Assembly (NCBI GenBank): GCA_014816185.1
Contig: GCA_014816185.1_4095.1
Source: a phage
Length of the DNA: 64,000 nucleotides
Reading direction: 5' to 3' (one strand)
The notes beneath the pieces were generated by a model, which had not been told where the DNA came from, made no database searches, and saw nothing but the letters and a program-made list of their open reading frames with translations. The number at the start of each line of letters is the position of its first letter. Position 1 is the first letter of the stretch. Positions 8,776-25,382 of the stretch are shown here, piece by piece. Made by a program: the position numbers and the translations under genes.

Positions 8776-9885
8776 TTATTTCGGCATTGTAATTGCAGAC
8801 CATGAGTTCGTGGTAATAGGACCTGGTACATACAAAAAAGAACCACAAGCATAAATTTGATTATTACCATCAAATACTATACTAAAATGTGCACATGTGT
8901 ATAATGATGATTTTTCTGGGTTGTAATTATCTAAAGTTAGTGTATTGGTGAATCTACTCAAACCACCTCCCGAACCATTTCTACCAAATTCACCAGTACT
9001 GTATATCTTTCCTTCGGTTGTTGCGTACATATTAACATATGAAGTCGCACTTGATTTTGATATTTTATGTATCTTACTATCAATAGTAGTGGAGTTAAAT
9101 GCAAATGGATATACTTGTGTGTTCGTTGTAATACCGTTACCAAGTTGACCAATATACTGCCAACCTGCGTTGTATATATTGCTGGCTGAATAAGCAAGAG
9201 TACCAGTACTGTTACCACCAAATAGTTTAACACTTGTTAACCTGCTTACTAGTGTAGTATACTGTCCTGGACTTACGCCAAGTGAACCATACCCACTGCT
9301 CCCGCAACCGAGAAGTTCATTATTTGATGTTAATATTAATGTGTTATTCTGTGTACCCAATATATCAAGAACTGTATTAGCTCCGGTATTAATAACTGAA
9401 ACAAAAGTACTCTGAGCCGTGGAATACCCACCACCGAGTGAATAGTTACCATTCATGCCTCTACCATAAACAATCGAACCACTAGCATCAACGTAGTGCA
9501 TTGTATCTGCACCAATTGATATCATTTTAATATTAGATATATGTGGAAATGAAGAAGTAACATTCAAACCACCCAACGGAATCATAGTATTTCCTGTGCC
9601 TAATTGTGTGGTAACTCCATGCATTATGAATTCTTCACCCTTGAGATAAAGAATATTGTACGCCCCAGCCCATGCATCAGTAACACCTTCTGAAATTAAT
9701 ATCCAAGTATTTCTTGTTGCTGTATTTTCAACGTTTAACTGAAAATACGTATTAACCCCACAACCATAAAGTGAGCCATCACCATAGAGGACGTACAAAT
9801 TATCAAGACCGCACAGTACTTTCTTTATCTTTGGAGCTTCAGGTGCAATATTTCCGTACTTAATCATTCTAACAAAAGGTAACAT
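8776..9885 (-). CDS. MLPF-propeller family protein 2
   Basis: starts MLPFVRMIKYGNIAP at 9885; G-x-N-x-x-G-Q-L-G-like blades. Confidence 0.65.
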   Translation of the reverse strand: MLPFVRMIKYGNIAPEAPKIKKVLCGLDNLYVLYGDGSLYGCGVNTYFQLNVENTATRNTWILISEGVTDAWAGAYNILYLKGEEFIMHGVTTQLGTGNTMIPLGGLNVTSSFPHISNIKMISIGADTMHYVDASGSIVYGRGMNGNYSLGGGYSTAQSTFVSVINTGANTVLDILGTQNNTLILTSNNELLGCGSSGYGSLGVSPGQYTTLVSRLTSVKLFGGNSTGTLAYSASNIYNAGWQYIGQLGNGITTNTQVYPFAFNSTTIDSKIHKISKSSATSYVNMYATTEGKIYSTGEFGRNGSGGGLSRFTNTLTLDNYNPEKSSLYTCAHFSIVFDGNNQIYACGSFLYVPGPITTNSWSAITMPK

Positions 9886-9956
9886 ATTTCCCTCCTTATT
9901 CATTATACTATATTTAATACAAATAAGAAAGCCAGTATCAAGTACTGGCCTATATT
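9886..9956 (-). promoter_or_regulatory. MLPF-family upstream cassette
   Basis: same conserved element as 8698-8775. Confidence 0.55.
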
Positions 9957-10694
9957 TTAGACTGAATTGTTAGGATAATATCTCCCACGTCCCCATATTA
10001 TTCGCACAGCACCACCACCAGCAGCCGTATAAGAAAAATTATCCCATATACTACCACCACCACCATACATCTTACCAGCACCACCACTACCAGCACCACC
10101 ATTATATGAACCATCGTATCTACCGCCAATACCATTAGCACCTTGAACAATGATACCAGTACCACCACCCGTACCAATGAACGAGGTATTATAGAATGCA
10201 CCACCACCACCGCCGCCCCCAGCACCATTTTCACCAGTGATTGCATCTCCGTTACCACCTTTACCAGTGTAGCCACCAGCACCACCACCAATGACTGCAC
10301 CACCACTTACACCAGCGTTGCCCCCATTACCACCACCATCATTAATAGCGTTAGCAGCTTTCCCACCTAGTCCACCAACCCTATATTCACCAGTGAAGCT
10401 AACACATAGTTTTTCAGTTCCACGATATAAACCGTTTTCAACTGGTGTAGTAGTGTTGGGATGTGTAAGAGAAACACTTAAGTACTCACCACTAGTAACC
10501 GGAATATTATTACGCCACGATAAGCCGCCACCAGCACCACGTTGACCACCCGGCGAAATAACACATACTGATATTTCGGTAACGCCAGCAGGAACTGTAA
10601 ATTGTGTTGTTCCTATTGTCGTGATTAATTGTTCACCATGTGGCTTATATTCAATTTTATTCCCGTACTTAACCATTCTTCCAAAAGGTAACAT
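9957..10694 (-). CDS. MLPF-tagged glycine-rich protein
   Basis: MLPFGRMVKYGN N-terminus followed by long Gly-rich low-complexity body (GGGNGGNAGVSGG..GAGGGGGGGA); 245 aa. Confidence 0.6.
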   Translation of the reverse strand: MLPFGRMVKYGNKIEYKPHGEQLITTIGTTQFTVPAGVTEISVCVISPGGQRGAGGGLSWRNNIPVTSGEYLSVSLTHPNTTTPVENGLYRGTEKLCVSFTGEYRVGGLGGKAANAINDGGGNGGNAGVSGGAVIGGGAGGYTGKGGNGDAITGENGAGGGGGGGAFYNTSFIGTGGGTGIIVQGANGIGGRYDGSYNGGAGSGGAGKMYGGGGSIWDNFSYTAAGGGAVRIIWGRGRYYPNNSV

Positions 10695-10765
10695 AATTCC
10701 CCTCCTTATTCATTATACTATATTTAATACAAATAAGAAAGCCAGTATCAAGTACTGGCGTAATG
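10695..10765 (-). promoter_or_regulatory. MLPF-family upstream cassette
   Basis: conserved element. Confidence 0.55.
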
Positions 10766-11908
10766 TCAATAAGTATCCCAAGGTAATGGTGTCTTCCTAA
10801 ATCCATACCTGGTTGTGCTCGCACCATCACCAGCAATGTATCTACCTATACCACATTGGTATAACTCTGTACTACTACATATAGCACCACCTATAGTACC
10901 ACTACTCCACTGAATTATATTAGAATATGTTATTGGTAAATCACTACATTTAGTATATACAGCAACGGTAGAAGCACCACTAATACCACCAAACATACTT
11001 CGGTTAGCACCAGTGTAATATATACCATCTGGACTCATAAATGCAGAGGTGTAAGTTGTACTGCAATCCACTGGACTTCTTATTGTATTAAGATCGCCTG
11101 GGTATGTCCTGACACCAAAGGTGTATACATTACCATCAGTTGTAATACCATTACCTAACTGCCCACTGCTTTGTCCACCACATGTAAGCAACAATGCAGA
11201 ACCAGAAACAATTGCAGTAGCATTATACGAAGTACCCATTGCAATAGAAGCACCAGACAATAGTTTTGGTGTAACGATAGCTGTTGTATTACCCTGGCCT
11301 AATTCACCATTTGTGTTTCGTCCCCATGCGTATATAGAAGTTGTATCCAAGCGACATAGTACTGAACCATAACTAAACGTATATCGCATGTCATTTACAG
11401 CAGAAGGCAAATTAACCTTAGTTGCAACACTAATAACACCGCCAGTAACACCACTGTTTGCGTTCATGTTACGACCATATGCATATAAAGAACCATCTGA
11501 AGTTTTAATATGCATCATACCATCTGTGCAATATAATGCATCGATGCTATCCACCGCAACCGGACCCATACTGGCAGTTATATCGGTCCACCCAAGAGTA
11601 GTAGTACTAGAAATTAAGTTATTTCCTGCATATAGTATTCTATTATTATTAGTAACTACCACTGTATATCTAGCAGTAACTCCAATTAATCGAACATCAG
11701 TATATATCTTAGACCACGCACCTAGTGAATTTGTATTTGCATCCAAAAAGCCTAACTGCCCATCTGTATTGTATCCAATACCCCATGCATCACCTGCACT
11801 GTCCAATAACACTTCATGTGAAAAGCCAATCTTAAAATCTTTTATTGTAGGAACTACTGGAACTGGTGCTATATTCCCGTACTTAACCATTCTTGCAAAA
11901 GGTAACAT
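10766..11908 (-). CDS. MLPF-propeller family protein 4
   Basis: MLPFARMVKYGNIAPVP; motifs YNTDGQLGF, GRNTNGELGQGNTT, GGQSSGQLGNGITT. Confidence 0.65.
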   Translation of the reverse strand: MLPFARMVKYGNIAPVPVVPTIKDFKIGFSHEVLLDSAGDAWGIGYNTDGQLGFLDANTNSLGAWSKIYTDVRLIGVTARYTVVVTNNNRILYAGNNLISSTTTLGWTDITASMGPVAVDSIDALYCTDGMMHIKTSDGSLYAYGRNMNANSGVTGGVISVATKVNLPSAVNDMRYTFSYGSVLCRLDTTSIYAWGRNTNGELGQGNTTAIVTPKLLSGASIAMGTSYNATAIVSGSALLLTCGGQSSGQLGNGITTDGNVYTFGVRTYPGDLNTIRSPVDCSTTYTSAFMSPDGIYYTGANRSMFGGISGASTVAVYTKCSDLPITYSNIIQWSSGTIGGAICSSTELYQCGIGRYIAGDGASTTRYGFRKTPLPWDTY

Positions 11909-11980
11909 AATTCCCCTCCTTATTCATTATACTATATTTAATACAAATAAGAAAGCCAGTATCAAGTACTGGCATTCTTT
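11909..11980 (-). promoter_or_regulatory. MLPF-family upstream cassette
   Basis: conserved element. Confidence 0.55.
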
Positions 11981-13144
11981 TTAAAATGGTGAATCTATTA
12001 CAAATACTAAGCTATTAATACCACCATATGTGACATCAGCCCCAGTACTATATACAAAATTACCATCAGTTATATAAGTACGGTTATACCCACCTGACAT
12101 TTGTGATTTACTATAATCAAAACCATCAGGTACGATTGCTTTGGTATATACTAATGCGTTAGTAGATGTACCAACACCTAACATACCAGCTTGTGTTGAT
12201 TGGTTGTAGCCACAACAATATATACCATCTGTTGTAGCAATAACTTGGTTATAATATGAAGTATTATGGGCCATACTGAGTACATCACCTGGTGGCATTA
12301 GGGAAGCAGTTTGAACAGCAAATGCTCTTATATCAGTACTATTCACTCCATCTGCCTGTGCACCAAATCTTTTCGCCCCACCATTGGCAATTATGGTTTT
12401 TCCATTTGGATCAGTACCAATAGCCATCGCCATTGAATTGTTATTATTTACATAGTACTCGATATTAATTACACTCCTTAGACTCGTAGGAGCACTAGTG
12501 TATACTGTATATAGAGAAGTACCACTAGTGCTAATTGCATTGACACGGCCTGTATAGTATAACCAACCGTTAGCAGTAACATAACCATGCATTAGATTAC
12601 TTGCAAACAATTTAAATGGTAATTGGTCTTCTTCAGTAGAGACTGTGCTCTGGACGAATTTAGTATTAACGTTGTTAGTTGTTGTCCCATTACCTAACTG
12701 ACCTTCTGCCCCTGCCCCAGTACTCCATATTGTTCGATCTGAAAGTAATACACTTGTAGTCTGATTACTAACTGCCATATCTAATATTGGTAATGTTAAT
12801 GTATTGAATGTTGGCATAGCAGAAGTCCACACTGATACGGCTGCCCCTGTCATACCAACAGTAGTTGACGAACCACTGTACCATATTTCATTGTTGAATT
12901 TCTTAATAACCAAAGAAGTGGTACTTAACCAAAAATCTTCAACACCAGAAGTACTTAACGTCCATGTAGTAACGGTTTCTTTGTGACCTAAACCCAAAAG
13001 ACCATTTGAATTCTGACCACGTACATATAAATCCCCACTGCTTGTTAAAACTGCAACGTTGTAGTTATTGGCGAGTATTTTTTTAAATTTCGGTGGTGCT
13101 GGTGCTATATTCCCGTACTTAACCATTCTTGCAAAAGGTAACAT
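11981..13144 (-). CDS. MLPF-propeller family protein 5
   Basis: MLPFARMVKYGNIAPAPP; GQNSNGLLGLG, GAEGQLGNGTTT motifs. Confidence 0.65.
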   Translation of the reverse strand: MLPFARMVKYGNIAPAPPKFKKILANNYNVAVLTSSGDLYVRGQNSNGLLGLGHKETVTTWTLSTSGVEDFWLSTTSLVIKKFNNEIWYSGSSTTVGMTGAAVSVWTSAMPTFNTLTLPILDMAVSNQTTSVLLSDRTIWSTGAGAEGQLGNGTTTNNVNTKFVQSTVSTEEDQLPFKLFASNLMHGYVTANGWLYYTGRVNAISTSGTSLYTVYTSAPTSLRSVINIEYYVNNNNSMAMAIGTDPNGKTIIANGGAKRFGAQADGVNSTDIRAFAVQTASLMPPGDVLSMAHNTSYYNQVIATTDGIYCCGYNQSTQAGMLGVGTSTNALVYTKAIVPDGFDYSKSQMSGGYNRTYITDGNFVYSTGADVTYGGINSLVFVIDSPF

Positions 13145-13216
13145 AATTCCCTCCTTTATTCATTATACTATATTTAATACAAAAAGAAAAGCCAGTACTG
13201 AGTACTGGCTATTATA
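13145..13216 (-). promoter_or_regulatory. MLPF-family upstream cassette
   Basis: conserved element. Confidence 0.55.
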
Positions 13217-14404
13217 TTATAATTGTCGGGGTGTATCTAGTACATATCTAGTTGTACTAGGACCACCATCATCATAAGTTCCGGTTGAATATATATTTTT
13301 CATATCAGTTAGAAATGTACGATATGAACCTCTATATATTTTTATTTTATCATACATAGAATATGTTATTTGTGTAGGCATTGGACATGCAGTAAACTTA
13401 CCAACAGTTGCACTAGTACCAATACCCAATGAACCAGCATAACTACTGGCATTTAAACCAGTTGCATATACACCAGTACTCGTAATTAGTATACTAGATT
13501 GTGGTGGGTATCCAGTATGAATTGAATACAAAGTACCGGGTGGTAACGTAGTACTGTTATTTCCTAAAACTCCATTAACAGAGCTAGATGTAGTGTTATT
13601 TCCCCATGCCCCATTATTAGCTAACCCACCGACAAGGAACTGACGTGCTCCTGTATTTGGATTTTCAACTAAAGCACTTACTGCACCAGTTGAGCATCCT
13701 GTGTATTGTAACGTTTTTGTGTATGTTGTACTTGGTTGATATAAAGTATATTCATTATATGAAGTCCATGTAGTCGCGGAACTTATACCGGATGTAACAC
13801 CACCAATATATAAATTATTTTGTTTATCAAACATCAATACACAGTTATTTGTTGACTGTATTTGTGCAATATCAACATTAGGTGTGACCGCTTTTACAAA
13901 TGAACCATCGGTTATTTCATAAGTAGTTCCCGTTCCATCGGCGAATTGTCTAGCACTGTTCCACCCTGTACTCCATATTGTATTATTATCCATTAATACC
14001 GTAAACCACGTAGTACCTCCATACATCTGTTTAATTGAAGTACTTGAACTTTGTGTGTACAAATTTTCAATATATTGGTTATAACTTAAAAACGTAGTAG
14101 TACTTGTTGGTAAACCAATATGAGAACCATATCCACAATAAAAATAATTTAAGTCATTGTCTTTTACTAATAAAGTTCCTTGTGTAAGCCAGCAATCGTT
14201 AACGTTTTCTCTAATTAATGTCCATGATTTTAATGCAGTGTTGTTTCCTCTACCGAATTTCCCAAAACTATTATTCCCACGTGCATATAGTTGACCATCC
14301 GTATACAGAACCACAACATCTAAATCAGTTGGGATTATTTTCTTAATTTGAAGTGGTACTGGGGCAATATTCCCATAATTCATCATTCTTGCAAAAGGTA
14401 ACAT
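13217..14404 (-). CDS. MLPF-propeller family protein 6
   Basis: MLPFARMMNYGNIAP; G/S/T/N-rich. Confidence 0.6.
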   Translation of the reverse strand: MLPFARMMNYGNIAPVPLQIKKIIPTDLDVVVLYTDGQLYARGNNSFGKFGRGNNTALKSWTLIRENVNDCWLTQGTLLVKDNDLNYFYCGYGSHIGLPTSTTTFLSYNQYIENLYTQSSSTSIKQMYGGTTWFTVLMDNNTIWSTGWNSARQFADGTGTTYEITDGSFVKAVTPNVDIAQIQSTNNCVLMFDKQNNLYIGGVTSGISSATTWTSYNEYTLYQPSTTYTKTLQYTGCSTGAVSALVENPNTGARQFLVGGLANNGAWGNNTTSSSVNGVLGNNSTTLPPGTLYSIHTGYPPQSSILITSTGVYATGLNASSYAGSLGIGTSATVGKFTACPMPTQITYSMYDKIKIYRGSYRTFLTDMKNIYSTGTYDDGGPSTTRYVLDTPRQL

Positions 14405-14475
14405 AAATTCCTCCTTTATTCATTATACTATATTTAATACAAATAAGAAAGCCAGTATCAAGTACTGGCATTAAA
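14405..14475 (-). promoter_or_regulatory. MLPF-family upstream cassette
   Basis: conserved element. Confidence 0.55.
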
Positions 14476-15624
14476 TCATTGTATAAATGACATATCAACT
14501 TCTGTATAACTAAGAATGTTTTGTCCAGCAATTCCCCCCATTACTACCATAGCATACCCACAATAATATAATTGCTCAGTGTCCGTAAGTATAAGTGAAC
14601 CAGATGGAGTGCGTACCAAATTACACGAACTATTAAACGAAGTATACGAAGGAGTATATGAGTACTGATTAATATTATTACCAACACCTAATTGACCAAA
14701 TCCATTCGACCCAGATGCGTATAGAACTTCATCACCTTTAGCTATATGTGATGCCATGTTACTAACACACGTATATAGAGTATAAACTCCTGAACTCAAT
14801 AATGTCGGAGTTTTGTATTGTATATCGGTAGATGAAGAAGTACCACCTGTGCCAAATTCGTTCCCGTATTGTGCACCGAACTGTTTACCACAAGCGTACA
14901 AATTATTATCCGATTTAATAAAAAATGTACTTTGATAACTTACATCAAAATCTATAACATCCGAAGCAATCATCGTCACCCCAGTAATAGAAGTTTGATT
15001 ACCTGTACCTAACTGATAGTAATAGTTAAAACCACAACCCCATAAAGTATTATCTTCTTTTAGGTATATGTTACCAACTGCCTTTTTAACCGAAGTTATA
15101 GTATCTACCCTTTTGAATGTGTTAAAAGAATTAATGTTTGTACCATCACCAAATGATGATAGGTTCGAGTTATTGTTAACTCCACAACAATACAACGTAC
15201 CATCGTTTGTTATCAAATTCACCTTCATATCATTAAAACTACTCATGTATTTTATATCAGAAACATTAATACCACCTGATGTTATCCACGTAGTACAGTC
15301 CGTCCACAAAGTTTTTGTATCAGTTACACCAGTGAATGCCTTCGTGTTACCAGTGATAAAAACTTTTCCAGTACCTTTCTCTTCATACAATTGACAACTA
15401 CTACTGTTATCTTCCAATAGAACTCGTTTAACATTCTCCGCACAAAGAATAAATTTACTCGATGCTACACCTGTACCAGTACCCCAATTCGTCGCAGAAG
15501 ATGCATACAACTTATTAGTATAAGTATCATGAAGATACATAGAATCACTTGAATATATTTTAAAACGCCTATCCTTACCAGGGGCAATATTCCCATAATT
15601 CATCATTCTTACAAAAGGTAACAT
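14476..15624 (-). CDS. MLPF-propeller family protein 7
   Basis: MLPFVRMMNYGNIAP; GSNGFGQLGVGNN motif. Confidence 0.6.
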   Translation of the reverse strand: MLPFVRMMNYGNIAPGKDRRFKIYSSDSMYLHDTYTNKLYASSATNWGTGTGVASSKFILCAENVKRVLLEDNSSSCQLYEEKGTGKVFITGNTKAFTGVTDTKTLWTDCTTWITSGGINVSDIKYMSSFNDMKVNLITNDGTLYCCGVNNNSNLSSFGDGTNINSFNTFKRVDTITSVKKAVGNIYLKEDNTLWGCGFNYYYQLGTGNQTSITGVTMIASDVIDFDVSYQSTFFIKSDNNLYACGKQFGAQYGNEFGTGGTSSSTDIQYKTPTLLSSGVYTLYTCVSNMASHIAKGDEVLYASGSNGFGQLGVGNNINQYSYTPSYTSFNSSCNLVRTPSGSLILTDTEQLYYCGYAMVVMGGIAGQNILSYTEVDMSFIQ

Positions 15625-15695
15625 ATTTCCCTCCTTTATTCATTATACTATATTTAATACAAATAAGAAAGCCAGTACAGTGTACTGGCATTATA
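15625..15695 (-). promoter_or_regulatory. MLPF-family upstream cassette
   Basis: conserved element. Confidence 0.55.
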
Positions 15696-16835
15696 TTATT
15701 TCCACGGTAGAAGTGAATCAGGAACCCTTGTTGGTACAGTAGTTGAAGACATTCCAGTAAGATTGGGTACACCACATGTGTATAAATTATTATATTCGTC
15801 AACTAACATCGTATAAGAATAGCTCTTACAAAAACTACTAAGATTACTACCTTCTAATGCAGTAAGATCCATTTCAGCGAATGATGTTATATACATATCA
15901 GTTGTACCAATACCACATTGACCATTTGAATTAAGGCCACATGAAAATAACTTATTATTATTATTAATTATACAGGATGGTCCGGTAAGGTTTGTCCCAA
16001 GCTCACCCACCAACTCCACTTCTCCTTGGAATGATAAATTTGGAATTAATGTACTCATTGGGGCTACTGACCTATTTCCTGTACCTGCTTGTCCATAGTC
16101 GTTAATAGATGCAACTTTAACATTACCATCATTAAGAAATATATAAGAAGTTTCATTTGTATTGACTGCTTTAATTGCATTACTAATCGAAGTATCTTGT
16201 GTAAATGTGAGCAAGTTTTGTGTCGTCGTTCCTGATACAAACGTTCTACCTGCATACCAATATGAACCATCATTTAGTACTAATCCAGTACTATATATTG
16301 CACAACCAGCACTGATAACATTTTCTATTGTACTATAGGTGAATCGTGAAACGCTTGAAGTTGATCCATTCCCAAAAACACCACCAGTACCAGCACCACA
16401 GTAGAACCACTTTCCATTTTTTAAAAATACACGCATACACGAAGATATCACAACACTATCAATATCATCTGCACTGACACCGAAATCAGTAAAGTTCTGT
16501 GTTATATCAACCCAAACGCCGTTAGTGTTTGAAGATAGTATTGGAATAACAGTACGTCTACCAGTGTACCAAATAGTACCATCTTTCTTTATAGCAATTG
16601 TTCCTTGTACCCCACCCCAATATCGTGTAACATTTGAGTTGACAAGAGTCCATTCAGTTGAAGAGTCCAATGAACCATTACCACTTTGTCCATATGCTGA
16701 AGAACCAAACCAATATAGATTGCCATTTGTGTGTAAATAAAATTTGGCATCAGCAGAACATTGTAACCTGTTTTTAGGTAGAATCAGTTCAGGTGCGATA
16801 TTCCCGTACTTAACCATTCTTGCAAAAGGTAACAT
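15696..16835 (-). CDS. MLPF-propeller family protein 8
   Basis: start moved to MLPFARMVKYGNIAPE at 16835; GLNSNGQCGIGTTD motif. Confidence 0.6.
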   Translation of the reverse strand: MLPFARMVKYGNIAPELILPKNRLQCSADAKFYLHTNGNLYWFGSSAYGQSGNGSLDSSTEWTLVNSNVTRYWGGVQGTIAIKKDGTIWYTGRRTVIPILSSNTNGVWVDITQNFTDFGVSADDIDSVVISSCMRVFLKNGKWFYCGAGTGGVFGNGSTSSVSRFTYSTIENVISAGCAIYSTGLVLNDGSYWYAGRTFVSGTTTQNLLTFTQDTSISNAIKAVNTNETSYIFLNDGNVKVASINDYGQAGTGNRSVAPMSTLIPNLSFQGEVELVGELGTNLTGPSCIINNNNKLFSCGLNSNGQCGIGTTDMYITSFAEMDLTALEGSNLSSFCKSYSYTMLVDEYNNLYTCGVPNLTGMSSTTVPTRVPDSLLPWK

Positions 16836-16905
16836 ATTCCCTCCTTTATTTGTTATACTATATTTAATACAAATAAGAAAGCCAGTACTCTGTACTGGCA
16901 TTATG
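16836..16905 (-). promoter_or_regulatory. MLPF-family upstream cassette
   Basis: conserved element. Confidence 0.55.
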
Positions 16906-18015
16906 TTATTTTGGTAAATCAATTTTAGTAAAGACTGCAACATCCTCGATTGCACCTGGAATGGCGTAATACGATCCAGTACTATACACATCTCCATTTT
17001 TGGTTAATATCGATGTCAAACCATCACTAAAAAGAACATCCCTAATCTCACTAACTTCAACGGGTAATTGTAAATTGGTAGCACTATATATAGCACCAGT
17101 TTGAGAATTGTTTAATCCCAAACCACGGTTCGCCCCAACACCCTTCTGATATGTACTAGTAATTACCATTTGTGTAGCAGTATTTAAGGCAGGTGAATTC
17201 GTCATAAACAACGGAGAACTATTAGGCAAAGTACTTAAAGGAACTGCACGGAATGTAGTCGTACCTGAACTAAGAAAGTTTGGAGTTTGACCACATACGA
17301 AATATGATGTACCATTATAGTAATTTAATGCATTACCACCAATGGCTGCATCGATTACACCAGAACTACGCAATCCCCAAGTGTTAATTTGTGTTTGGTT
17401 CCCCGTACCATGCTGCCCACTACTATTCCATCCAGAACTATATAGCTTATTATCTAATGTAAGATACATACTATCATTCGCATTGGTCATTACTTTACGA
17501 ACGTTCGTAGCACATTGAGTTAATGTGTAAATTGATGATGAACCAATACCCAAAGAACCACGATATCCATTATCTCCTGCACCATAGAGTACTGAATTAG
17601 TGCTAAGTACAAATATTAAACCATTTGTACATACAATATTAGCAATTTCACTTACTGGTATAGCATTGGTAAACCAATTAGTTCTTTCAACTAATACAGT
17701 ACTGTAAGAAGTAGTTGTAGAAGATGAGAACCAGTACGTTTGACCTGATGTCCATATCGTATTATCATTTTTAATAATAACAAGTGTACGATCACCCACG
17801 AAAAAATTAGAAACATCTGCACTTACTAATGTCCACGAAGACACCGTGTTGGTATTACCATTTCCAGATTCACCACCTTGATTTCTACCTATGTAATATA
17901 AATCATGTGAATCAGTCAATAAGAATTGGCCTTGGGTAGAAGCACCAACTTTAATTATTTTTTTAGGACCAGGGACAATATTTCCATACATAATCATTCT
18001 TCCAAAAGGTAACAT
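16906..18015 (-). CDS. MLPF-propeller family protein 9
   Basis: start at MLPFGRMIMYGNIVP (18015); no cassette upstream, only 8 nt after stop of 18024..19226, so co-transcribed; GWNSSGQHGTGNQT motif. Confidence 0.6.
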   Translation of the reverse strand: MLPFGRMIMYGNIVPGPKKIIKVGASTQGQFLLTDSHDLYYIGRNQGGESGNGNTNTVSSWTLVSADVSNFFVGDRTLVIIKNDNTIWTSGQTYWFSSSTTTSYSTVLVERTNWFTNAIPVSEIANIVCTNGLIFVLSTNSVLYGAGDNGYRGSLGIGSSSIYTLTQCATNVRKVMTNANDSMYLTLDNKLYSSGWNSSGQHGTGNQTQINTWGLRSSGVIDAAIGGNALNYYNGTSYFVCGQTPNFLSSGTTTFRAVPLSTLPNSSPLFMTNSPALNTATQMVITSTYQKGVGANRGLGLNNSQTGAIYSATNLQLPVEVSEIRDVLFSDGLTSILTKNGDVYSTGSYYAIPGAIEDVAVFTKIDLPK

Positions 18016-18023
18016 ATTCCCTC

Positions 18024-19226
18024 CTATTGTTGCCATAACTGCGATGGCATTAATGTTAGTGTAGTAATACTATAAGTGCCATCTGGCAATCTACCACCAT
18101 TTCCATTCCAGCCACCACATGCATATAATTTATAATCTTTAGTAATTATTATGGTTCTGCTCCAATCTTTAGATGCCATAAGAACATTGTCATAACCACC
18201 ACTTATTGCACTAAGATTAAAAATATTCCAAGTTCTAACTAATGTATTAGTTCCATTACCTTCTTGACCATATGAGTTAGCACCACTACTTCTAACATAT
18301 GGTGCGTATTGTGCCATAGGTGCACCAATTGATGCATTTCCCATATTACTTGGACAAATAAAAGTACTGTACTTACTTACATCAACCGTGACCGATGTGT
18401 TCCTAATTGGTGTTAGCTGATTTACCGATGTAGTCGTACCATTACCAGCTTGTCCAGAACTGTTAGCCCCGCTATAATATACAGACCCACCAGTAGTAAA
18501 CCACCAAGTAACATCGTATGTAGTACTAATATGTTCTACATTACTAATCACGAATTTGTTCAAATATACAACAGAACTACCACCACATCCACTTTCACCA
18601 AAGTTATCCTTACCACAAAACCATGCATCTTTATTTGATTTGATATAGTGCGTTCCTTGTAATGAACATGCCATATGTGTAACTTCACCCATATTAGTCA
18701 TAACTGTGAGTGTAGGGATGGAATTTTTATTCCCAGAGCCACATTCACCATTAGTATTTCTTCCACACGCAATTACTCTACCATCGGTTAATAATATTCT
18801 AGTACTTTCACCTATATATACACTCTTGATCATATTAGCCATAACACCTATTTTATTAAATGCAACAGTAACATCAGTCCATGTTGTCAAATAACCATTA
18901 ACAGGTGTTGCATCTCCATAATCAGAAAATGCACCAACCGACCCAGTGTAGTATATTTTATTATCCAAATCAATCATCAATGAACCTTGAACACCAAGCC
19001 AAAAGGCTGCACAGTTCCTTGCAAGTACTGTAAATGACGAAACTGCTGCTGAATTCCCAAGACCAAATTGATAAAAGTTATTACTACCATAACCATATAA
19101 AGTATTAGTTGGGTTATGGAGATACATACAGTTTGTATAATGTTGTTGTAAAACATCTGAGAACTCTACAGGTTCTGGACCTGGTGCAATATTTGCGTAC
19201 TTAACCATTCTTCCAAAAGGTAACAT
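18024..19226 (-). CDS. MLPF-propeller family protein 10
   Basis: MLPFGRMVKYANIAP; GANSSGQAGNGTTT motif. Confidence 0.6.
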   Translation of the reverse strand: MLPFGRMVKYANIAPGPEPVEFSDVLQQHYTNCMYLHNPTNTLYGYGSNNFYQFGLGNSAAVSSFTVLARNCAAFWLGVQGSLMIDLDNKIYYTGSVGAFSDYGDATPVNGYLTTWTDVTVAFNKIGVMANMIKSVYIGESTRILLTDGRVIACGRNTNGECGSGNKNSIPTLTVMTNMGEVTHMACSLQGTHYIKSNKDAWFCGKDNFGESGCGGSSVVYLNKFVISNVEHISTTYDVTWWFTTGGSVYYSGANSSGQAGNGTTTSVNQLTPIRNTSVTVDVSKYSTFICPSNMGNASIGAPMAQYAPYVRSSGANSYGQEGNGTNTLVRTWNIFNLSAISGGYDNVLMASKDWSRTIIITKDYKLYACGGWNGNGGRLPDGTYSITTLTLMPSQLWQQ

Positions 19227-19297
19227 ATTTCCCTCCTTTATTCATTATACTATATTTAATACAAAAAGAAATGCCAGTATCAAGTACTGGCATAATA
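19227..19297 (-). promoter_or_regulatory. MLPF-family upstream cassette
   Basis: conserved element. Confidence 0.55.
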
Positions 19298-20476
19298 TTA
19301 TCGGTTAAATTTAAAATCTGTTATGTGTGTCCATGTATGATTTAATGGTGTACTCAATGGTGTAAAGCCAGCAGGGTCTGACCACGTTGAACCACATGCG
19401 TACATAAATTGATTGCCAGTACAATCCATTATAGCATAAGAACGTGTTGCTGTACCACATTTGAATCCAACTGCACTACTTGGGGTCGGTAATACTTCAA
19501 ATGTAGGTGCATTTGAAGTATTACCCCCATTTTTTGTTCCAGCTATGTACAGAACTCCATTAGTATCAATGATTAAGTTAGTCCAATATGCTTGTTCTCG
19601 ACCAGCATAAAAATATGTTAAATCACCGGGTACAAATGGTAACGTACCTTTATATAGTGTAGTATTAACATCCACTGGTGCTCCAGATACACCCCATGAA
19701 CTCATATAGTTTCTCCCACTTGCGTAGAATGTAGTTCCTTTACCGTAAAGTATTAATGATGCATGACTTGTTCGCATTGCATTATATTCAAACTCAGGAT
19801 CATCAGTAGCGTCCTTAAAAATCTGTGTCCATGTTGTTATATAGCCAGTAGTTGTAACACCCATTTGATAATAATAATTATCACCAGTAGCATAGAATTG
19901 TTTAGGGCCAGTTTGTACAATTGCATTCCTATTAGTTAACCAAAAATCTAATGTATTAGTCATGATCTTGGTGGGTGTGAAATTCGCCACGGTATTTCCT
20001 TTTCCGAAATAACCCTTAGCGTTATCTCCATGACCCCATAAATCACCATTAGTTGTGCGTAGGAATAATGTACCAGAATTGAATACAACTTTTTCTATAG
20101 TACTTATATCAATACCAACAGAAGTGTAATTCGTTGTAAAATCTTGAAAAGTACCCCAAAAATTAGATGAACCATTAAACATGACTTGACTACCAGTGTA
20201 CTTCACTTTATTATCTTTAGTGATAAGTAATGTCCCCCACGATGCCGCGAACATTAACTTAACATTTTCCATAACAAAGTATGGCTTACCGTATGCTGAC
20301 GCGGTAGAGTTCAAACCTAATAGTTGTCTATTATTACTACAACCCCATACTTCGCCGTTATCCAAAAGCATCAACATAGTAGGTTTACCAGATAATACAG
20401 ACAAAAAGAAATCTTTTGGTGTTGGTACACCAGGTGCAATATTCCCATAATCAAACATTCTAACAAAAGGTAACAT
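19298..20476 (-). CDS. MLPF-family protein 11
   Basis: MLPFVRMFDYGNIAP; body Trp/Tyr/Thr-rich and more divergent. Confidence 0.6.
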   Translation of the reverse strand: MLPFVRMFDYGNIAPGVPTPKDFFLSVLSGKPTMLMLLDNGEVWGCSNNRQLLGLNSTASAYGKPYFVMENVKLMFAASWGTLLITKDNKVKYTGSQVMFNGSSNFWGTFQDFTTNYTSVGIDISTIEKVVFNSGTLFLRTTNGDLWGHGDNAKGYFGKGNTVANFTPTKIMTNTLDFWLTNRNAIVQTGPKQFYATGDNYYYQMGVTTTGYITTWTQIFKDATDDPEFEYNAMRTSHASLILYGKGTTFYASGRNYMSSWGVSGAPVDVNTTLYKGTLPFVPGDLTYFYAGREQAYWTNLIIDTNGVLYIAGTKNGGNTSNAPTFEVLPTPSSAVGFKCGTATRSYAIMDCTGNQFMYACGSTWSDPAGFTPLSTPLNHTWTHITDFKFNR

Positions 20477-20579: not shown

Positions 20580-20807
20580 ATGACAACTACACTTAAGTAC
20601 TACATTAATACTCTAAATGAACTAGAGTACGCGAAGTTTCTCGCGGATAGTTCGTGGCTAATTGAGCTAAAAACACATAACAGTACTGGATGTAACCTTA
20701 TGCTGAACAATGCACTTGATACCCTTGTAGTGAGTATTTTACACAGCAACATCTGCGGGAATAGCAATAAACAATTATCAAAAATCTTAGTACTGGTAGC
20801 TCTATGA
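20580..20807 (+). CDS. small protein, divergent first member of ~60-aa tandem family
   Basis: 75 aa; KYYINTL N-term, LVLVAL C-term. Confidence 0.5.
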   Translation: MTTTLKYYINTLNELEYAKFLADSSWLIELKTHNSTGCNLMLNNALDTLVVSILHSNICGNSNKQLSKILVLVAL

Positions 20808-21016
20808 ACACTATGAACATTGAACAGTACTACATCGATGCACTACCAACAAAAGGTCTACGAGAAAGCCTACTGTATACACAAAATAATTATATAAACT
20901 TCAAACATTGTCCTAAACTCTTGAACTCGTACAGGAATAATAAAATAAGAAATGCTGTACAAGGGGTAGAAAGTATGCAATACTATTACATCCTAACCCT
21001 TTTAATCGAGCACTAA
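20804..21016 (+). CDS. ~60-aa family member
   Basis: N-term QYYIDALP, C-term YYILTLLIEH; ATGA overlap. Confidence 0.55.
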   Translation: MNTMNIEQYYIDALPTKGLRESLLYTQNNYINFKHCPKLLNSYRNNKIRNAVQGVESMQYYYILTLLIEH

Positions 21017-21017
21017 T

Positions 21018-21203
21018 ATGTATAAAGAATTCTACTGTAGTAAGCTGCACAAACAATACAGAGATTCATTTCCAAATGAACCTATGGATATGAATAGTCC
21101 CTTTTATAAATTTGACTTCAGACTGGAGACACGTTATGCAATAGAACATCAATTTCCTGAAACTAAGTACTTATCTATCATGAACCTCATCTTTAAGTTC
21201 TAA
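21018..21203 (+). CDS. ~60-aa family member
   Basis: MYKEFY..; C-term YLSIMNLIFKF. Confidence 0.55.
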   Translation: MYKEFYCSKLHKQYRDSFPNEPMDMNSPFYKFDFRLETRYAIEHQFPETKYLSIMNLIFKF

Positions 21204-21214
21204 AAGAGTACTAT

Positions 21215-21427
21215 ATGAAAACTATGAACATACACCAGTACTACTTAGATATTCTCCCTAAAGATGTACAGTTCATCCTTAAACAAGAATACAGTACTTT
21301 AAAAAACCTTAAAAGAACCGCACCGAATGTATTAATCCTGCACCAAGAAAATGTAGTTGATAATATTCTACAAGGTGTACCAGGGACCGAGTACTTTAAC
21401 ATAATAAGGCTAATTACATTACCATGA
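21215..21427 (+). CDS. ~60-aa family member
   Basis: QYYLDILP..YFNIIRLITLP. Confidence 0.55.
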   Translation: MKTMNIHQYYLDILPKDVQFILKQEYSTLKNLKRTAPNVLILHQENVVDNILQGVPGTEYFNIIRLITLP

Positions 21428-21609
21428 ATCATATATTATACTATTACCAAAATCTATCCGACAGGGACAAGTACACCCACAACTCCAATGTATGGTACTA
21501 CAAACGCGGTAGTATAAGAGACAAACAACATTACTTCTGTATTGCTATAAAAGAAGCACTAACAACTAAGTACACGTACAGAGCAGTACTGAAACTTATT
21601 GATATGTAA
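21424..21609 (+). CDS. ~60-aa family member
   Basis: C-term YTYRAVLKLIDM. Confidence 0.55.
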   Translation: MNHILYYYQNLSDRDKYTHNSNVWYYKRGSIRDKQHYFCIAIKEALTTKYTYRAVLKLIDM

Positions 21610-21619
21610 AGAGAATACT

Positions 21620-21802
21620 ATGAGCATTGAATTGTACTTAAGTAAATTACAGCCTGGCGATAGATTCATCTACAATAAGTTCGAATTCAACTACAAGAAC
21701 GGGAGCAACAAATATCGTCGAGGATACCTATATACAAGCACAAGAGATGCACAAAACGAAAAGTACACATACAGAGAAGTACTTAAACTAATCTCTATTT
21801 GA
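21620..21802 (+). CDS. ~60-aa family member
   Basis: start at ATG 21620 (MSIELY); track start 21599 is TTG; C-term YTYREVLKLISI. Confidence 0.5.
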   Translation: MSIELYLSKLQPGDRFIYNKFEFNYKNGSNKYRRGYLYTSTRDAQNEKYTYREVLKLISI

Positions 21803-21810
21803 GGTAATAT

Positions 21811-21996
21811 ATGAATACATTTGAGTACTATACCAATAAACTATCTATGCCTGAAAGATCTCATCTCTATGTGTGGAGAAATGCGTATAAAAGCGGCAAT
21901 AAACTTATACAAAGAAATTCCCTTACAGTGTGTACAAATTTAATTAAAGCAGAGTACCGCACATATATTGAAGTACTCAAACTGATAGCAATATAA
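21811..21996 (+). CDS. ~60-aa family member
   Basis: MNTFEYYTNKLS..YIEVLKLIAI. Confidence 0.55.
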   Translation: MNTFEYYTNKLSMPERSHLYVWRNAYKSGNKLIQRNSLTVCTNLIKAEYRTYIEVLKLIAI

Positions 21997-22004
21997 GGTA
22001 CTCT

Positions 22005-22172
22005 ATGCAAGAATTCTATATCTATAACCTCCAGCACAAAGATAGATACAACTATAATAAATTCCAAAGGTACTACACAGTCGGGAACAAAAGAGATAAA
22101 AAACGTTATCTACTCTCGTGTACAGTAGAAGCACAAAACGAAAAGTACACGTACAGAGAAGTACTTAAACTA
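22005..22172 (+). CDS. ~60-aa family member with 1-nt deletion near 3' end
   Basis: MQEFYIYNL..; aaaacgaaagtac here vs aaaacgaaaagtac in paralog 21620..21802 shifts frame and removes the conserved YTYREVLKLISI tail. Confidence 0.35.
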
Positions 22173-22191
22173 ATCTCAATCTAAGGTAGAC

Positions 22192-22380
22192 ATGAACACT
22201 TTTGAGTACTACTTCAATAAACTAAACCACATAGAACAAAGTATGCACAACTCATTTATTCAGCACCATCAATCATCTGCACATGGAATTAAAAATATAT
22301 CGATTGAGATTATCACTACCCGTGTACTGTCATCTGAACGTTATATGTATATTGATGTACTGAAACTCATCTCTATGTAA
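22192..22380 (+). CDS. ~60-aa family member
   Basis: MNTFEYYFNKL..YIDVLKLISM. Confidence 0.55.
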   Translation: MNTFEYYFNKLNHIEQSMHNSFIQHHQSSAHGIKNISIEIITTRVLSSERYMYIDVLKLISM

Positions 22381-22388
22381 GGAATAAT

Positions 22389-22568
22389 ATGCAAGAATAC
22401 TATATAGAACACATAAGCATTAAAGACCGTTTCATGTACGACACCTTCGTGAAGTACTACAACCTGGCAACTAATAGTACTAAAAATATTAATCTCAATA
22501 GCTGCATTCATCACGCACTAACAAAAGATAATCCCTTCAGGGAAATCCTCGCTCTCGCATCTGTATAA
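22389..22568 (+). CDS. ~60-aa family member
   Basis: 59 aa MQEYYIEHIS..; below track threshold, read from sequence. Confidence 0.45.
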   Translation: MQEYYIEHISIKDRFMYDTFVKYYNLATNSTKNINLNSCIHHALTKDNPFREILALASV

Positions 22569-22578
22569 AGGAAACCAA

Positions 22579-23238
22579 ATGAAACTTAATGCACACAGCA
22601 AACAATACCTTAAGCACTTTAAGTACCTCAACAGTATTCAAGCAGAATCTATTACATCTGCATATACGTATCACCCAAATGTACTAAAGAAACGAAATAA
22701 AAAGAAAAAATCCAGAAATGTTCTCGTATCTAAGAACCTCAAATCGTACTTGAAGAAAAATAATATAGCTCTTGCTTTTATTAATATCTATAATACTGAT
22801 TTAAAAGTATTGAGTACTAATACCAGCACAAAAGCACTAAAGAATGCATCTATCTATATACACATGGATAATATCCCGTGCACTATAATTCTATCTTTCG
22901 GGAATGTATACTTCTTCGGGAATTGTAATAGCACCCATGATATCAGTACTGCACAATTCCAAATCGGCGATATGTACTGCATGGGTTCAGAAAAAATACA
23001 CGATAACATGCACTTCTTCCAAAAGCAACGTACTAACGAAACTGATACAGTACTGCAATTCCTAAAAGAACTACAAAACAAAGAATTAACACCAGAAGAA
23101 GAATTCATGTACAGTACTGTAATCGATAATCCAGAACTCTATAAAAACGCGTACAATCTAACAAAACATGTACAGGAACTTATCAGTACTGATAAGAAAT
23201 TTCATCACCTCATTACGTATATTTCAAACTATGTATAA
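22579..23238 (+). CDS. hypothetical protein (219 aa) embedded in array
   Basis: longer Lys-rich ORF, not obviously a family member. Confidence 0.5.
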   Translation: MKLNAHSKQYLKHFKYLNSIQAESITSAYTYHPNVLKKRNKKKKSRNVLVSKNLKSYLKKNNIALAFINIYNTDLKVLSTNTSTKALKNASIYIHMDNIPCTIILSFGNVYFFGNCNSTHDISTAQFQIGDMYCMGSEKIHDNMHFFQKQRTNETDTVLQFLKELQNKELTPEEEFMYSTVIDNPELYKNAYNLTKHVQELISTDKKFHHLITYISNYV

Positions 23239-23404
23239 AGAATTCTACCTCTCGTACCTTAATTCCGATATAGTAACATCCAATACCTTCAGTACTAAAA
23301 TTATCTATAATGAAGTAATGAAAGAATGTATTAAAGGTGCTATTAACCCTAAAGATACGTATGACTTGTACTATGCAGTACTAACCCTTGTTTTCACGAA
23401 ATAA
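23231..23404 (+). CDS. ~60-aa family member
   Basis: MYKEFYLSYL..YYAVLTLVFTK; overlaps previous stop. Confidence 0.5.
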   Translation: MYKEFYLSYLNSDIVTSNTFSTKIIYNEVMKECIKGAINPKDTYDLYYAVLTLVFTK

Positions 23405-23412
23405 CACATAAT

Positions 23413-23604
23413 ATGAATAACCACAAAGAATACTACATAGAGAAACTCCCAATGTATCTCCAACACCTTGTACCAACAGAACCATTGCGTATAGAAAAAG
23501 ACTACGAAAAAGACTACTTCGTTAAGTGCACTAAATCCTCGATAGATATTGAGGACTATAATCGAGTACTGTATCACATCCTTTTACTAATATATAAGTA
23601 CTAA
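23413..23604 (+). CDS. ~60-aa family member
   Basis: MNNHKEYYIEKLP..LLLIYKY. Confidence 0.55.
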   Translation: MNNHKEYYIEKLPMYLQHLVPTEPLRIEKDYEKDYFVKCTKSSIDIEDYNRVLYHILLLIYKY

Positions 23605-23605
23605 T

Positions 23606-23794
23606 ATGAATAACCACAAAGAATACTACACACAATTTCTCCCCAGTATTTTTGAACACTACGCCAGATATAAAGTCCCTCTGGATAACGATTTGGCAGT
23701 ACTGGGATTCAATAATTGCATAGAACGCAGTATAGAAAATAGTAGTAGCTATGACCAATTATATAACACTATCCTACTTATATTCAGGTACTAA
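23606..23794 (+). CDS. ~60-aa family member
   Basis: MNNHKEYYTQFLP..ILLIFRY. Confidence 0.55.
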   Translation: MNNHKEYYTQFLPSIFEHYARYKVPLDNDLAVLGFNNCIERSIENSSSYDQLYNTILLIFRY

Positions 23795-23795
23795 T

Positions 23796-23984
23796 ATGCA
23801 TAAAGAATACTACACAAAATATTTCCCAATGTACCTCAGTACTAATCTATTAGATAAACCTCGCGGTATCAATGCTCAAAACGATAAAGTGTACTTTACT
23901 ATGTGCACTAAAGCATGTATACTAGATTTTGATAGCTATCATCGAGTACTGTATCATACACTGTACCTAGCTTTCGTGTACTAA
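23796..23984 (+). CDS. ~60-aa family member
   Basis: start at MHKEYYTKYFP (23796). Confidence 0.5.
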   Translation: MHKEYYTKYFPMYLSTNLLDKPRGINAQNDKVYFTMCTKACILDFDSYHRVLYHTLYLAFVY

Positions 23985-23994
23985 AGAGGCCAAT

Positions 23995-24201
23995 ATGAAC
24001 GAACAGAAAGAATTTTACACCAAACACCTCAGTGCATCAGAACAAATGTTTCTAAGGAGTGTATCACCTTTACGTTTAGATACACCACACGCCAGAGATT
24101 GCTTTAATAATTGTATACGTATTACTCTAGAAGCTTTAGAAAACAATAACAAAAATATTCAGTACTCAGGCGTAATGGGACTAATATTCTTCTATGAATA
24201 A
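23995..24201 (+). CDS. ~60-aa family member
   Basis: MNEQKEFYTKHLS..GLIFFYE. Confidence 0.55.
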   Translation: MNEQKEFYTKHLSASEQMFLRSVSPLRLDTPHARDCFNNCIRITLEALENNNKNIQYSGVMGLIFFYE

Positions 24202-24382
24202 CAAAGAATTCTACTTAAACCATCTGGAACTAAACTCCCAAATGCTTATACCACTAAACCCAATAGATATCAAGGATAAGAAAAATACCAAACAATTCCA
24301 CTACCACACACTATGTGCTATCAACCCAGATTATAATACATATAAACTGTACTACATTCTCGCCCTAATATACAGGTACTAA
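24194..24382 (+). CDS. ~60-aa family member
   Basis: MNNKEFYLNHL..LALIYRY. Confidence 0.55.
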   Translation: MNNKEFYLNHLELNSQMLIPLNPIDIKDKKNTKQFHYHTLCAINPDYNTYKLYYILALIYRY

Positions 24383-24383
24383 C

Positions 24384-24569
24384 ATGCATAGAGAATACTA
24401 CACACAATTTGTTAAAGGGAACTACAAACACGCCGTCCCCGTAAACCCCTTAAATTCTAATGACCCAAGTACTATATTCTTGTTCCATGACGCAATACGT
24501 ACAGTACTCAATACTAAAGATGAACAGGTGCAGTACGTATTCTTACTATTACTTATATACAGACACTAA
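24384..24569 (+). CDS. ~60-aa family member
   Basis: MHREYYTQFV..LLLIYRH. Confidence 0.55.
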   Translation: MHREYYTQFVKGNYKHAVPVNPLNSNDPSTIFLFHDAIRTVLNTKDEQVQYVFLLLLIYRH

Positions 24570-24574
24570 CTAAT

Positions 24575-24784
24575 ATGAATACAGAACATAAAGAATTCTA
24601 CTCCAAACACCTCAGCCCATCAGAACAAATGTTTCTAAGGACTACAGCACCTTTAAGTACTGATACATATTTCGGCAGAGTATGCTACAATAATTGTATT
24701 CAAATGACTTTAAACGCAAACGCCAATAATAACAGTACTAATATGTACTCCGGCATCATAGGTATACTATTTCTATATGAATAA
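24575..24784 (+). CDS. ~60-aa family member
   Basis: close paralog of 23995 (KEFYSKHLSPSEQMFLR). Confidence 0.55.
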   Translation: MNTEHKEFYSKHLSPSEQMFLRTTAPLSTDTYFGRVCYNNCIQMTLNANANNNSTNMYSGIIGILFLYE

Positions 24785-24959
24785 AGAACATAAAGACTTC
24801 TACATAAGAAAACTGACATTCGTCCCCGTAAAAATATATAAAGAATGCGACCCAAGATTATACCTATGGCACTTCAATGAGTGCATAAAAGATTCTATAT
24901 ACCCTAAGAACTACAAAGAACAATTGATCTCAGTACTAACACTAGTACTATCATATTAA
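24777..24959 (+). CDS. ~60-aa family member
   Basis: MNKEHKDFYIRKL.. Confidence 0.55.
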   Translation: MNKEHKDFYIRKLTFVPVKIYKECDPRLYLWHFNECIKDSIYPKNYKEQLISVLTLVLSY

Positions 24960-24972
24960 TAGAGATAATACT

Positions 24973-25164
24973 ATGCATAAAGACTATAAAGAGTACTATA
25001 TAAGTAAACTAAAAGAAAACGAACAAGCATGGGTTAACAATTTAATCCCCCTGGCAATGACTCAATACGAATTTAATATGTGTACAAAGATTGTTTTAAC
25101 TAGTAATGATATCTCTAATACGTACTACTTCCTATTAAGAGTACTATATGGTACTTTGAAATAA
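24973..25164 (+). CDS. ~60-aa family member
   Basis: MHKDYKEYYISKL.. Confidence 0.55.
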   Translation: MHKDYKEYYISKLKENEQAWVNNLIPLAMTQYEFNMCTKIVLTSNDISNTYYFLLRVLYGTLK

Positions 25165-25175
25165 TAAGGTATACT

Positions 25176-25382
25176 ATGCAGAACATAAAAAACTATAAAG
25201 AGTACTATATAAGTAAACTACCACCGACTGACCAAGCATGGATTAGATCTATAATAGTACTGGCATTTAATAGATATGCATTTAATAGATGTACCGAGAT
25301 TGCTATAGACCCTTATAATATTAAAGAGAATGTACAGCATAATCAGTACTACTATATGTTAATGCTTATATATAGGAAGTAA
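25176..25382 (+). CDS. ~60-aa family member
   Basis: NYKEYYISKLPPTDQAW.. paralog of 24973. Confidence 0.55.
   Translation: MQNIKNYKEYYISKLPPTDQAWIRSIIVLAFNRYAFNRCTEIAIDPYNIKENVQHNQYYYMLMLIYRK

Follow-up and report, generated by a model that had tools for sequence, protein, structure and literature searches.

A twelve-residue N-terminal tag shared by a glycine-rich protein and its RCC1-like neighbours: a probable virion-docking peptide in Asteriusvirus and related jumbo phages

The glycine-rich gene described here (positions 9957-10694, minus strand, ATG start, 245 residues) is the orthologue of 121Q gp243 and of CBB_144. It raises the question of what a short N-terminal peptide does when it is carried by proteins whose bodies are unrelated. 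The window, which is the whole stretch of 64,000 nucleotides that was analysed, is 95-99% identical to jumbo coliphages of the 121Q/PBECO4/SP27 type (genus Asteriusvirus). On the basis of this identity it is assigned to an Asteriusvirus (121Q/PBECO4-like) jumbo phage of E. coli. The gene itself is 99-100% identical to Asteriusvirus genes that are unannotated or annotated as "hypothetical".

The gene belongs to a tandem array of twelve MLPF-tagged genes (7297-20476, minus strand), made up of ten full-length RCC1-like propellers, the Gly-rich gene and one degenerate copy. The string MLPF occurs 12 times in the window, against a mean of 0.4 and a maximum of 3 in 100 shuffles, and the six-frame translation of the window contains none outside the twelve array gene starts. 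The ten full-length neighbours match the RCC1 Pfam families (PF25390, PF00415, PF13540) and PHROG 4219, and the RCC1 fold is confirmed for the product of 10766-11908, the model of which has a TM of 0.76 to UVR8. The Gly-rich protein matches PHROG 4474 and has no match to the RCC1 Pfam families or to PHROG 4219. The first-pass annotation had described a 245-residue protein with the N-terminus of the family on a body unlike those of its propeller neighbours, and both parts of this description are confirmed.

Other features of the region can be mentioned here. The degenerate twelfth copy (7032-7467, minus strand) consists of a 56-residue ORF (MLPFRRIITSS...) followed by a 111-residue RCC1-like ORF in another frame; its 5' unit has diverged too, and it is probably a pseudogenised cassette. 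The MLPF array directly adjoins an array of eight tandem paralogous ORFs of 104-141 residues (3566-6346, plus strand), which are strongly hydrophobic and resemble membrane proteins. About 23 small tandem ORFs of 59-77 residues are found at 20580-25382 (plus strand). They are apparently paralogous, with a recurring pattern M..EYY...L....Y..VL.LI, and are the counterparts of 121Q gp249-265, every one of which is annotated as hypothetical.

The N-terminus of the Gly-rich ORF is MLPFGRMVKYGNKIEYKPHGEQ. The tag itself, MLPFGRMVKYGN, is encoded by codons 1-12 (10659-10694, minus strand) and is common to the eleven full-length array genes, with the consensus M-L-P-F-x-R-hydrophobic-x-x-Y-[GA]-N. It is followed by a linker of residues 13-20 (KIEYKPHG; 10635-10658, minus strand; pLDDT 78) and by the domain of residues 21-245 (9960-10634, minus strand), which is composed of a TNF-like β-sandwich and a glycine-rich, polyglycine-II lattice. 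The AlphaFold2 model of the Gly-rich protein, calculated on an alignment of 59 homologues, has a pLDDT of 93.7 and a pTM of 0.89; over residues 1-10 the pLDDT drops to 51. The RCC1 neighbour was modelled at a pLDDT of 91.1, and residues 1-12 are its sole segment below 50. Because residues 1-12 are disordered in two otherwise confident models, the tag is predicted to lie outside either fold.

The bodies of 18 RCC1 paralogues are 20-26% identical (mean pairwise identity 21%), and in their alignment the tag positions M1, P3, F4, R6, Y10 and N12 account for six of the eleven invariant columns. The tag is absent from cellular RCC1 homologues. The combination of a shared N-terminus with differing bodies, found in 12 genes here and in 11 of phage CBB, is that of a modular anchor. 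It is important to note that the anchor is not a folded domain, since the shared part amounts to 12 residues with a pLDDT of 51 or less in two models.

Two other roles for the N-terminus were considered and rejected. A propeller-closing "velcro" strand does not agree with residues 1-12 being the sole disordered segment of the RCC1 model, or with the presence of the tag on non-propeller folds. Inspection of the sequence revealed no hydrophobic core and no Cys, as a signal peptide or lipoprotein would need.

The body of the Gly-rich protein had been described as Gly-rich and of low complexity. The glycine runs on which this was based, GGGNGGNAGVSGGAVIGGGAGG and GAGGGGGGGA, are indeed present in the 245-residue protein, but the term low complexity does not stand: the body is a conserved family with 194 homologues in a search of 5.8 billion proteins, and its model is confident. 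In the alignment of 59 homologues, the conserved body starts at G-[QE]-Q-L and invariant or near-invariant columns span the whole domain. They include the motifs VPxGV, GGGLSWRNNIPVTPGE, INDGGGNGG, GGGAGGY, GGGVG, YGGG and AVRIIWG, and the glycine stretches G120-G125, G137-Y142, G144-G147, G176-G178 and G211-G213. Glycine-rich motifs of the fibre-tip type (GGGxGG, GGAGGY, GxGG) are thus found, and in the window protein the TNF-like β-sandwich is followed by the glycine-rich lattice, as in a fibre-tip domain. The body is a receptor-binding fold of the fibre-tip type. No N-terminal helix is predicted before the domain in the AlphaFold2 model, where just 20 residues precede it. The window protein has no Pfam match at E<=1 and does not reach the gathering score of PF21722 (Gly_rich_2), a family carried by its distant homologues (E 1e-16 to 1e-6). 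The kinship with PF21722, as judged from these intermediate homologues, is an indirect one.

Uninterrupted copies of the gene, with 94-100% identity, are found in 17 related phage records. The copy in one more record, CMSTMSU, is 84.7% identical and frameshifted, and this 18th record is marked UNVERIFIED; the dN/dS value calculated with it was dropped for these reasons. Comparison with phage Sharanji gives a dN/dS of about 0.36. An accessory adhesin is the best reading of the protein.

Genes of the Gly-rich family are often solitary amid genes of nucleotide metabolism or replication. CBB_144 (L001, 9001-9765) lies between nrdD and nrdG, and PVP-SE1 gp19 (L018, 11998-12840) lies near a DNA polymerase gene. 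Such solitary genes look like independent insertions and not like members of a structural module, and their setting counts against the docking explanation given below. A tagless homologue of 206 residues was found in a Logan contig (P0002). It starts with MNKGG|NKIEYKP, in which the translated Shine-Dalgarno region is joined to codon 12, and 39 residues of the glycine-rich core are missing as well; either the gene carries deletions or the contig was wrongly assembled.

In the window, the tag codons are part of a repeat unit of about 103 nucleotides. The order of its elements is a hairpin GCCAGTAC-N-TACTGGC with a T-run, an TATTAAATATAGTATAATGAATAA box, a strong AAGGAGG Shine-Dalgarno sequence and codons 1-12. 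Alignment of the 12 upstream regions places the 5' non-coding part of the unit of the Gly-rich gene at 10695-10762 (minus strand). It contains, on the same strand, the terminator-like hairpin GCCAGTACTTGATACTGGC with its T-run (10741-10759), the TATAAT box (about 10712-10717) and the Shine-Dalgarno sequence AAGGAGGGG (about 10699-10707). Just 3' of the Gly-rich stop codon, another terminator-like hairpin (9929-9951, minus strand) opens the next repeat unit. Such hairpins are over-represented in the array, where both strands together have 19 sites compared with 5.4 +/- 2.6 expected, and the minus-strand hairpin is found 5' of 10 of the 12 array genes, those starting at 20476 and 18015 being the exceptions. 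A scan for sigma-70 promoters gave 57 sites compared with 65 expected. Because this is no enrichment, the conserved TATAAT box is called here a putative promoter element.

The units of the Gly-rich gene and of its upstream neighbour (the gene starting at 11908) are 97% identical from -66 to +37, with unrelated sequence on either side. DNA identity stops at +37 and the two sequences part exactly at codon 13. Codons 1-7 have zero synonymous changes in 11 copies; codons 10-15 vary synonymously and their residues are kept. Since codons 1-7 are invariant within a DNA unit that is itself 97% identical, conservation within the window, taken by itself, would not separate selection on the peptide from gene conversion. 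The unit is read as being under concerted evolution by gene conversion, on top of a constraint at the peptide level. Coverage of the array among close relatives is mosaic, which fits a role of the repeat units as homology for the gain, loss and exchange of cassettes.

Selection on the peptide can be assessed in Pectobacterium phage CBB (genus Mimasvirus), in which the motif heads 11 proteins at four genomic locations. These are the Gly-rich orthologue CBB_144; CBB_247, with a weak LamG match; CBB_536 and 537; CBB_548 and 551, with LamG; CBB_549 and 553; and CBB_550, 552 and 554, with Kelch. In a codon-level analysis of 10 of the 11 tags, positions L2, P3, F4, Y10, G11 and N12 use alternating synonymous codons, and the DNA upstream of the tagged genes has no conserved sequence in common. 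The synonymous variation together with the unrelated upstream DNA indicates that selection acts on the peptide. The BLASTP paralogue table of the CBB authors links only 536-537 and 549-553 (PMC5259590), and the N-terminus shared by the CBB structural proteins was not noted in that paper. The motif is not described in the literature retrieved by searches on the tag, on RCC1 proteins in Asteriusvirus and on virion structures of the 121Q type at high resolution.

Two scans of IMG/VR with degenerate patterns found genuine N-terminal tags only in Rak2-like genomes of 348-378 kb. These comprise 121Q, CBB, GAP32, Serratia phage BF together with the Erwinia pEa_SNUABM phages, Yersinia phage fHe-Yen9-04 and four uncultivated genomes. 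The Rak2-like phages RaK2 and K64-1 gave no match to the tag pattern. Chance matches to the loose DNA pattern, which were internal and lay in contigs of 20-200 kb (e.g. L024, L030), were left out as they were not at ORF starts. Further tagged cargo consists of RCC1+Kelch fusions of about 670 residues and of two domains of about 170 and 220 residues that have no assigned family.

Short metagenomic contigs of distant relatives have variant tags (MLPFPII, MFPLPII) that are common to tandem LamG and Gly-rich genes. In contigs L047/L048 and L050 a tagged LamG or RCC1 gene stands beside a tagged Gly-rich gene, with the variants MFPLPIINQ, MLPFPIISQ and MLPFPIMIH, and ..LPFARMLEYGN followed by MLPFPIISNTN. 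In L050 the RCC1 gene and the Gly-rich gene after it each have their own version of the tag. Outside the Rak2-like phages, 31 of the 120 matches listed for the Gly-rich protein start with M-[LIF]-E-[LM]-[LM], i.e. M-hydrophobic-E-hydrophobic-hydrophobic, followed by a variable linker. The same Gly-rich cargo, as far as these sequences indicate, bears different N-termini in different lineages, and the second type of start may be another lineage-specific docking peptide. Within the 20-kb flanks of three Gly-rich loci, no second protein with this start was found.

Published mass spectrometry links the tagged proteins to the virion. In CBB, ESI-MS/MS of virions detected 55 of 554 gene products (PMC5259590, Table 4). 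This set includes nine of the eleven tagged proteins (CBB_144, 247, 536, 537, 548, 549, 551, 552 and 553; hypergeometric P=2.4e-8), and the Gly-rich orthologue CBB_144 is represented by 5 peptides at 34% coverage (PMC5259590). The authors had proposed genes present in CBB and absent from GAP32 as candidates for the tail whiskers (PMC5259590). All six MS-detected structural proteins of this kind (144, 247, 536, 537, 551 and 552) are tagged. In GAP32 itself, the RCC1-like protein GAP32_001 is reported as structural and carries the tag. The supplements of the CBB paper contain no peptide lists that bear on retention of the N-terminus (PMC5259590).

A similar result is obtained for phAPEC6, a member of Asteriusvirus whose capsid and tail bear hairy fibres (PMC7247149). 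Its virion proteome includes gp003, 005, 006, 007, 009 and 010 (PMC7247149, Table 1), all of which start with MLPF and are RCC1-like, and their molecular weights agree with the published table. Six of the eight annotated tagged proteins are thus detected (P=4e-5), at a low coverage of 3-17% for the RCC1 proteins. In the phAPEC6 record (MK817115; L003), a wrong-frame ORF of 100 residues, gp004 (VVQSLVVVLV..., 7716-8018), is annotated inside the Gly-rich gene. The true protein, unannotated at 7325-8059, has 244 residues and the MLPF start. This mis-called ORF left the Gly-rich protein outside the MS database, where it could not have been identified; the Gly-rich protein of an Asteriusvirus has never been detected in virions.

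The tagged proteins have near-neutral pI values of 4.7-9.0, and 40-49% of their residues are S, T, N or G. Surface and fibre proteins of phages typically have such a composition, which argues against DNA condensation. The pI values, together with presence in the virion, lend no support to the annotation of the RCC1 array as "DNA condensation proteins".

That the tag serves as a targeting or anchoring module in its own right, as proposed in the first-pass annotation, is supported by its predicted disorder in two models, by the peptide-level selection in CBB, by the variety of the cargo and by the virion data. The structure prediction and the search for the tag on other proteins that it had suggested as checks bear this out: the tag lies outside both confidently modelled folds, and it heads the 12 array genes of the window as well as the CBB proteins. 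With a probability of roughly 60%, the tag is an N-terminal docking peptide that loads swappable lectin-like modules onto a common site of the virion in the 121Q/CBB/GAP32/BF branch. The motif MLPFxR(hydrophobic)xxY[G/A]N would be a short disordered linear motif, translated as part of many otherwise unrelated small β-rich proteins, of which it forms residues 1-12, and it would fold upon binding to a common virion acceptor. Its cargo would be the RCC1 and Kelch propellers, the LamG/ConA-like lectin folds, the two domains without assignment and the Gly-rich protein. Binding of the tag would build the cargo into the virion, most likely through this acceptor, for which the fibres seen by cryo-EM at the hexamer centres and tail rings of phAPEC6 are a candidate. 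The particle would then display mixed, rapidly exchangeable ligand-binding modules. The Gly-rich protein would be one of them, an adhesin of the fibre-tip type in which the 12-residue tag replaces the helical fibre shaft. Each module would sit in its own cassette, bounded by the 103-nucleotide unit that is near-identical between cassettes, and this unit would give the cargo gene its own expression signals as well as homology for duplication, loss and replacement. From the type of fold alone we infer an outer location; the binding of ligands on the host surface is likewise presumed. Docking by the tag itself is the probable route, and virion association could instead stem from the protein bodies.

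Three other explanations have to be compared with docking. The tag may be a capsid-targeting sequence of the T4 type, by which the cargo enters the prohead core, is packaged inside the head (e.g. in the inner body of phAPEC6) and is injected with the DNA. The logic is alike, with about ten shared N-terminal residues, unrelated and fast-evolving cargo and conserved 5' DNA, and the association of the tagged proteins with the virion agrees with it. In addition, phAPEC6 has an inner body, for which its authors suggested the RCC1-like proteins (PMC7247149). In five of ten CBB tags, positions 7-9 read hydrophobic-x-E, similar to a site of the T4-type prohead protease, but E is found in these five only, and in the window position 9 is K in 7 copies, N in 2, D in 1 and M in 1, so that no cleavage site is conserved. 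The cargo folds are lectin-like or fibre-tip-like, their pI range is not basic, and the tagged set comprises the structural proteins that separate hairy CBB from GAP32. Packaging inside the head is therefore considered unlikely.

Slightly less probable again is recognition of the tag by an assembly factor, such as a phage chaperone or chaperonin, or a role in oligomerisation of the modules, with no direct binding to the virion. The glycine-rich fibre-tip domains of Pam3 do require dedicated chaperones (PMC9608196), GroES-like proteins are encoded by these phages, and a disordered terminal peptide would suit chaperone recognition or a β-annulus. However, a single folding requirement common to propellers, LamG domains and a TNF-like domain is unlikely, AlphaFold2 folds the cargo confidently as monomers, and this explanation by itself leaves the virion enrichment unexplained. 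The shared N-terminus might also be without function as a peptide, a passenger of a gene-converted DNA or RNA cassette (terminator, promoter, Shine-Dalgarno sequence and initiation region) whose 5' end was captured by the Gly-rich gene. The near-identity of the unit from -66 to +37 between unrelated flanks, the synonymously invariant codons 1-7 and the hairpin before most array genes are what such a passenger would predict. In CBB, however, the tag is kept with different codons at separate locations that share no upstream DNA, the window codons 10-15 change and keep their residues, and the two neighbours in L050 bear different tag versions. A cassette of DNA or RNA only appears to be largely refuted by the CBB codon data, and we regard it as very improbable.

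Docking of the tag to the virion, which we prefer, has a more far-reaching version that is possible but doubtful. A single acceptor, maybe the "hairy" fibres at the capsid hexamer centres and three tail rings of phAPEC6, 121Q and CBB, would take any tagged protein. The virion coat would then be a combinatorial one, in which six or more unrelated folds of the lectin type are represented, and tagged proteins would either form the whiskers or decorate them. If this were true, the 12-residue tag would be enough to load foreign proteins onto jumbo-phage particles, and it could serve as a very small handle for protein display on large phages.

It is also important to consider what the tag means for annotation. 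For the RCC1-like arrays of 121Q-type phages, the annotation "DNA condensation proteins" has been widely propagated, and records of the Gly-rich gene list it as hypothetical or, for phAPEC6, in a wrong frame. The tag unifies about 12 proteins per genome into one virion-associated class in at least three genera, and it moves them from DNA binding to a probable function in surface adhesion. This makes the nature of the hairy virion decorations directly testable. From the structure of the cassettes one can see how such phages might exchange their host-interaction modules.

Several known systems resemble the one described here. In phage T4, the internal proteins IPI-III share a short N-terminal capsid-targeting sequence on unrelated, rapidly exchanged cargo, and this sequence is embedded in conserved 5' DNA. 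The tag is likewise short and N-terminal, is found on unrelated virion cargo of one phage, and lies in conserved 5' DNA that would favour cassette exchange. It differs in having no conserved protease site and in being carried, not by small basic proteins, but by neutral domains of 170-670 residues that are lectin-like. The anchors of tailspikes and fibres (CBA120, G7C, K1-5/SP6, RaK2 gp526-534) are folded, have about 60-300 residues and are found on trimeric fibres or spikes. There too, many proteins of the receptor-binding type from one genome share their N-terminus and vary in the body, so that a shared site of attachment is implied; the shared part here, however, is a disordered peptide of 12 residues on small globular modules. 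The cargo-loading peptides of encapsulins and the encapsulation peptides of microcompartments also use a short terminal motif as a portable address label, in their case for an assembly with the HK97 fold or for a protein shell. This comparison is conceptual only, as these labels are unrelated to the tag in sequence and act on the interior of the shell.

The body of the Gly-rich protein belongs structurally with the glycine-rich folds of Pam3 gp24, S16 gp38 and the glycine-rich domain of ALK. Related folds are found in Bxb1 gp33 and gp29, in LTK and in PF21722. The closest description is that of gp24 of cyanophage Pam3 (PDB 7ypx), in which the TNF-like and polyglycine-II fold forms the host-recognising fibre tip and resembles the ligand-binding domain of ALK. 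Attachment of the tail fibre gp24 to the baseplate is the task of a distinct helical domain at its N-terminus (PMC9608196). Such a trimerising helical shaft is lacking in the window protein, which has the 12-residue tag and the 8-residue linker instead; no chaperone gene was identified adjacent to it. Shared N-termini with variable receptor-binding bodies and short N-terminal address peptides are both well known. The difference here is a disordered tag of 12 residues that is spread across at least six unrelated small folds within one clade of jumbo phages.
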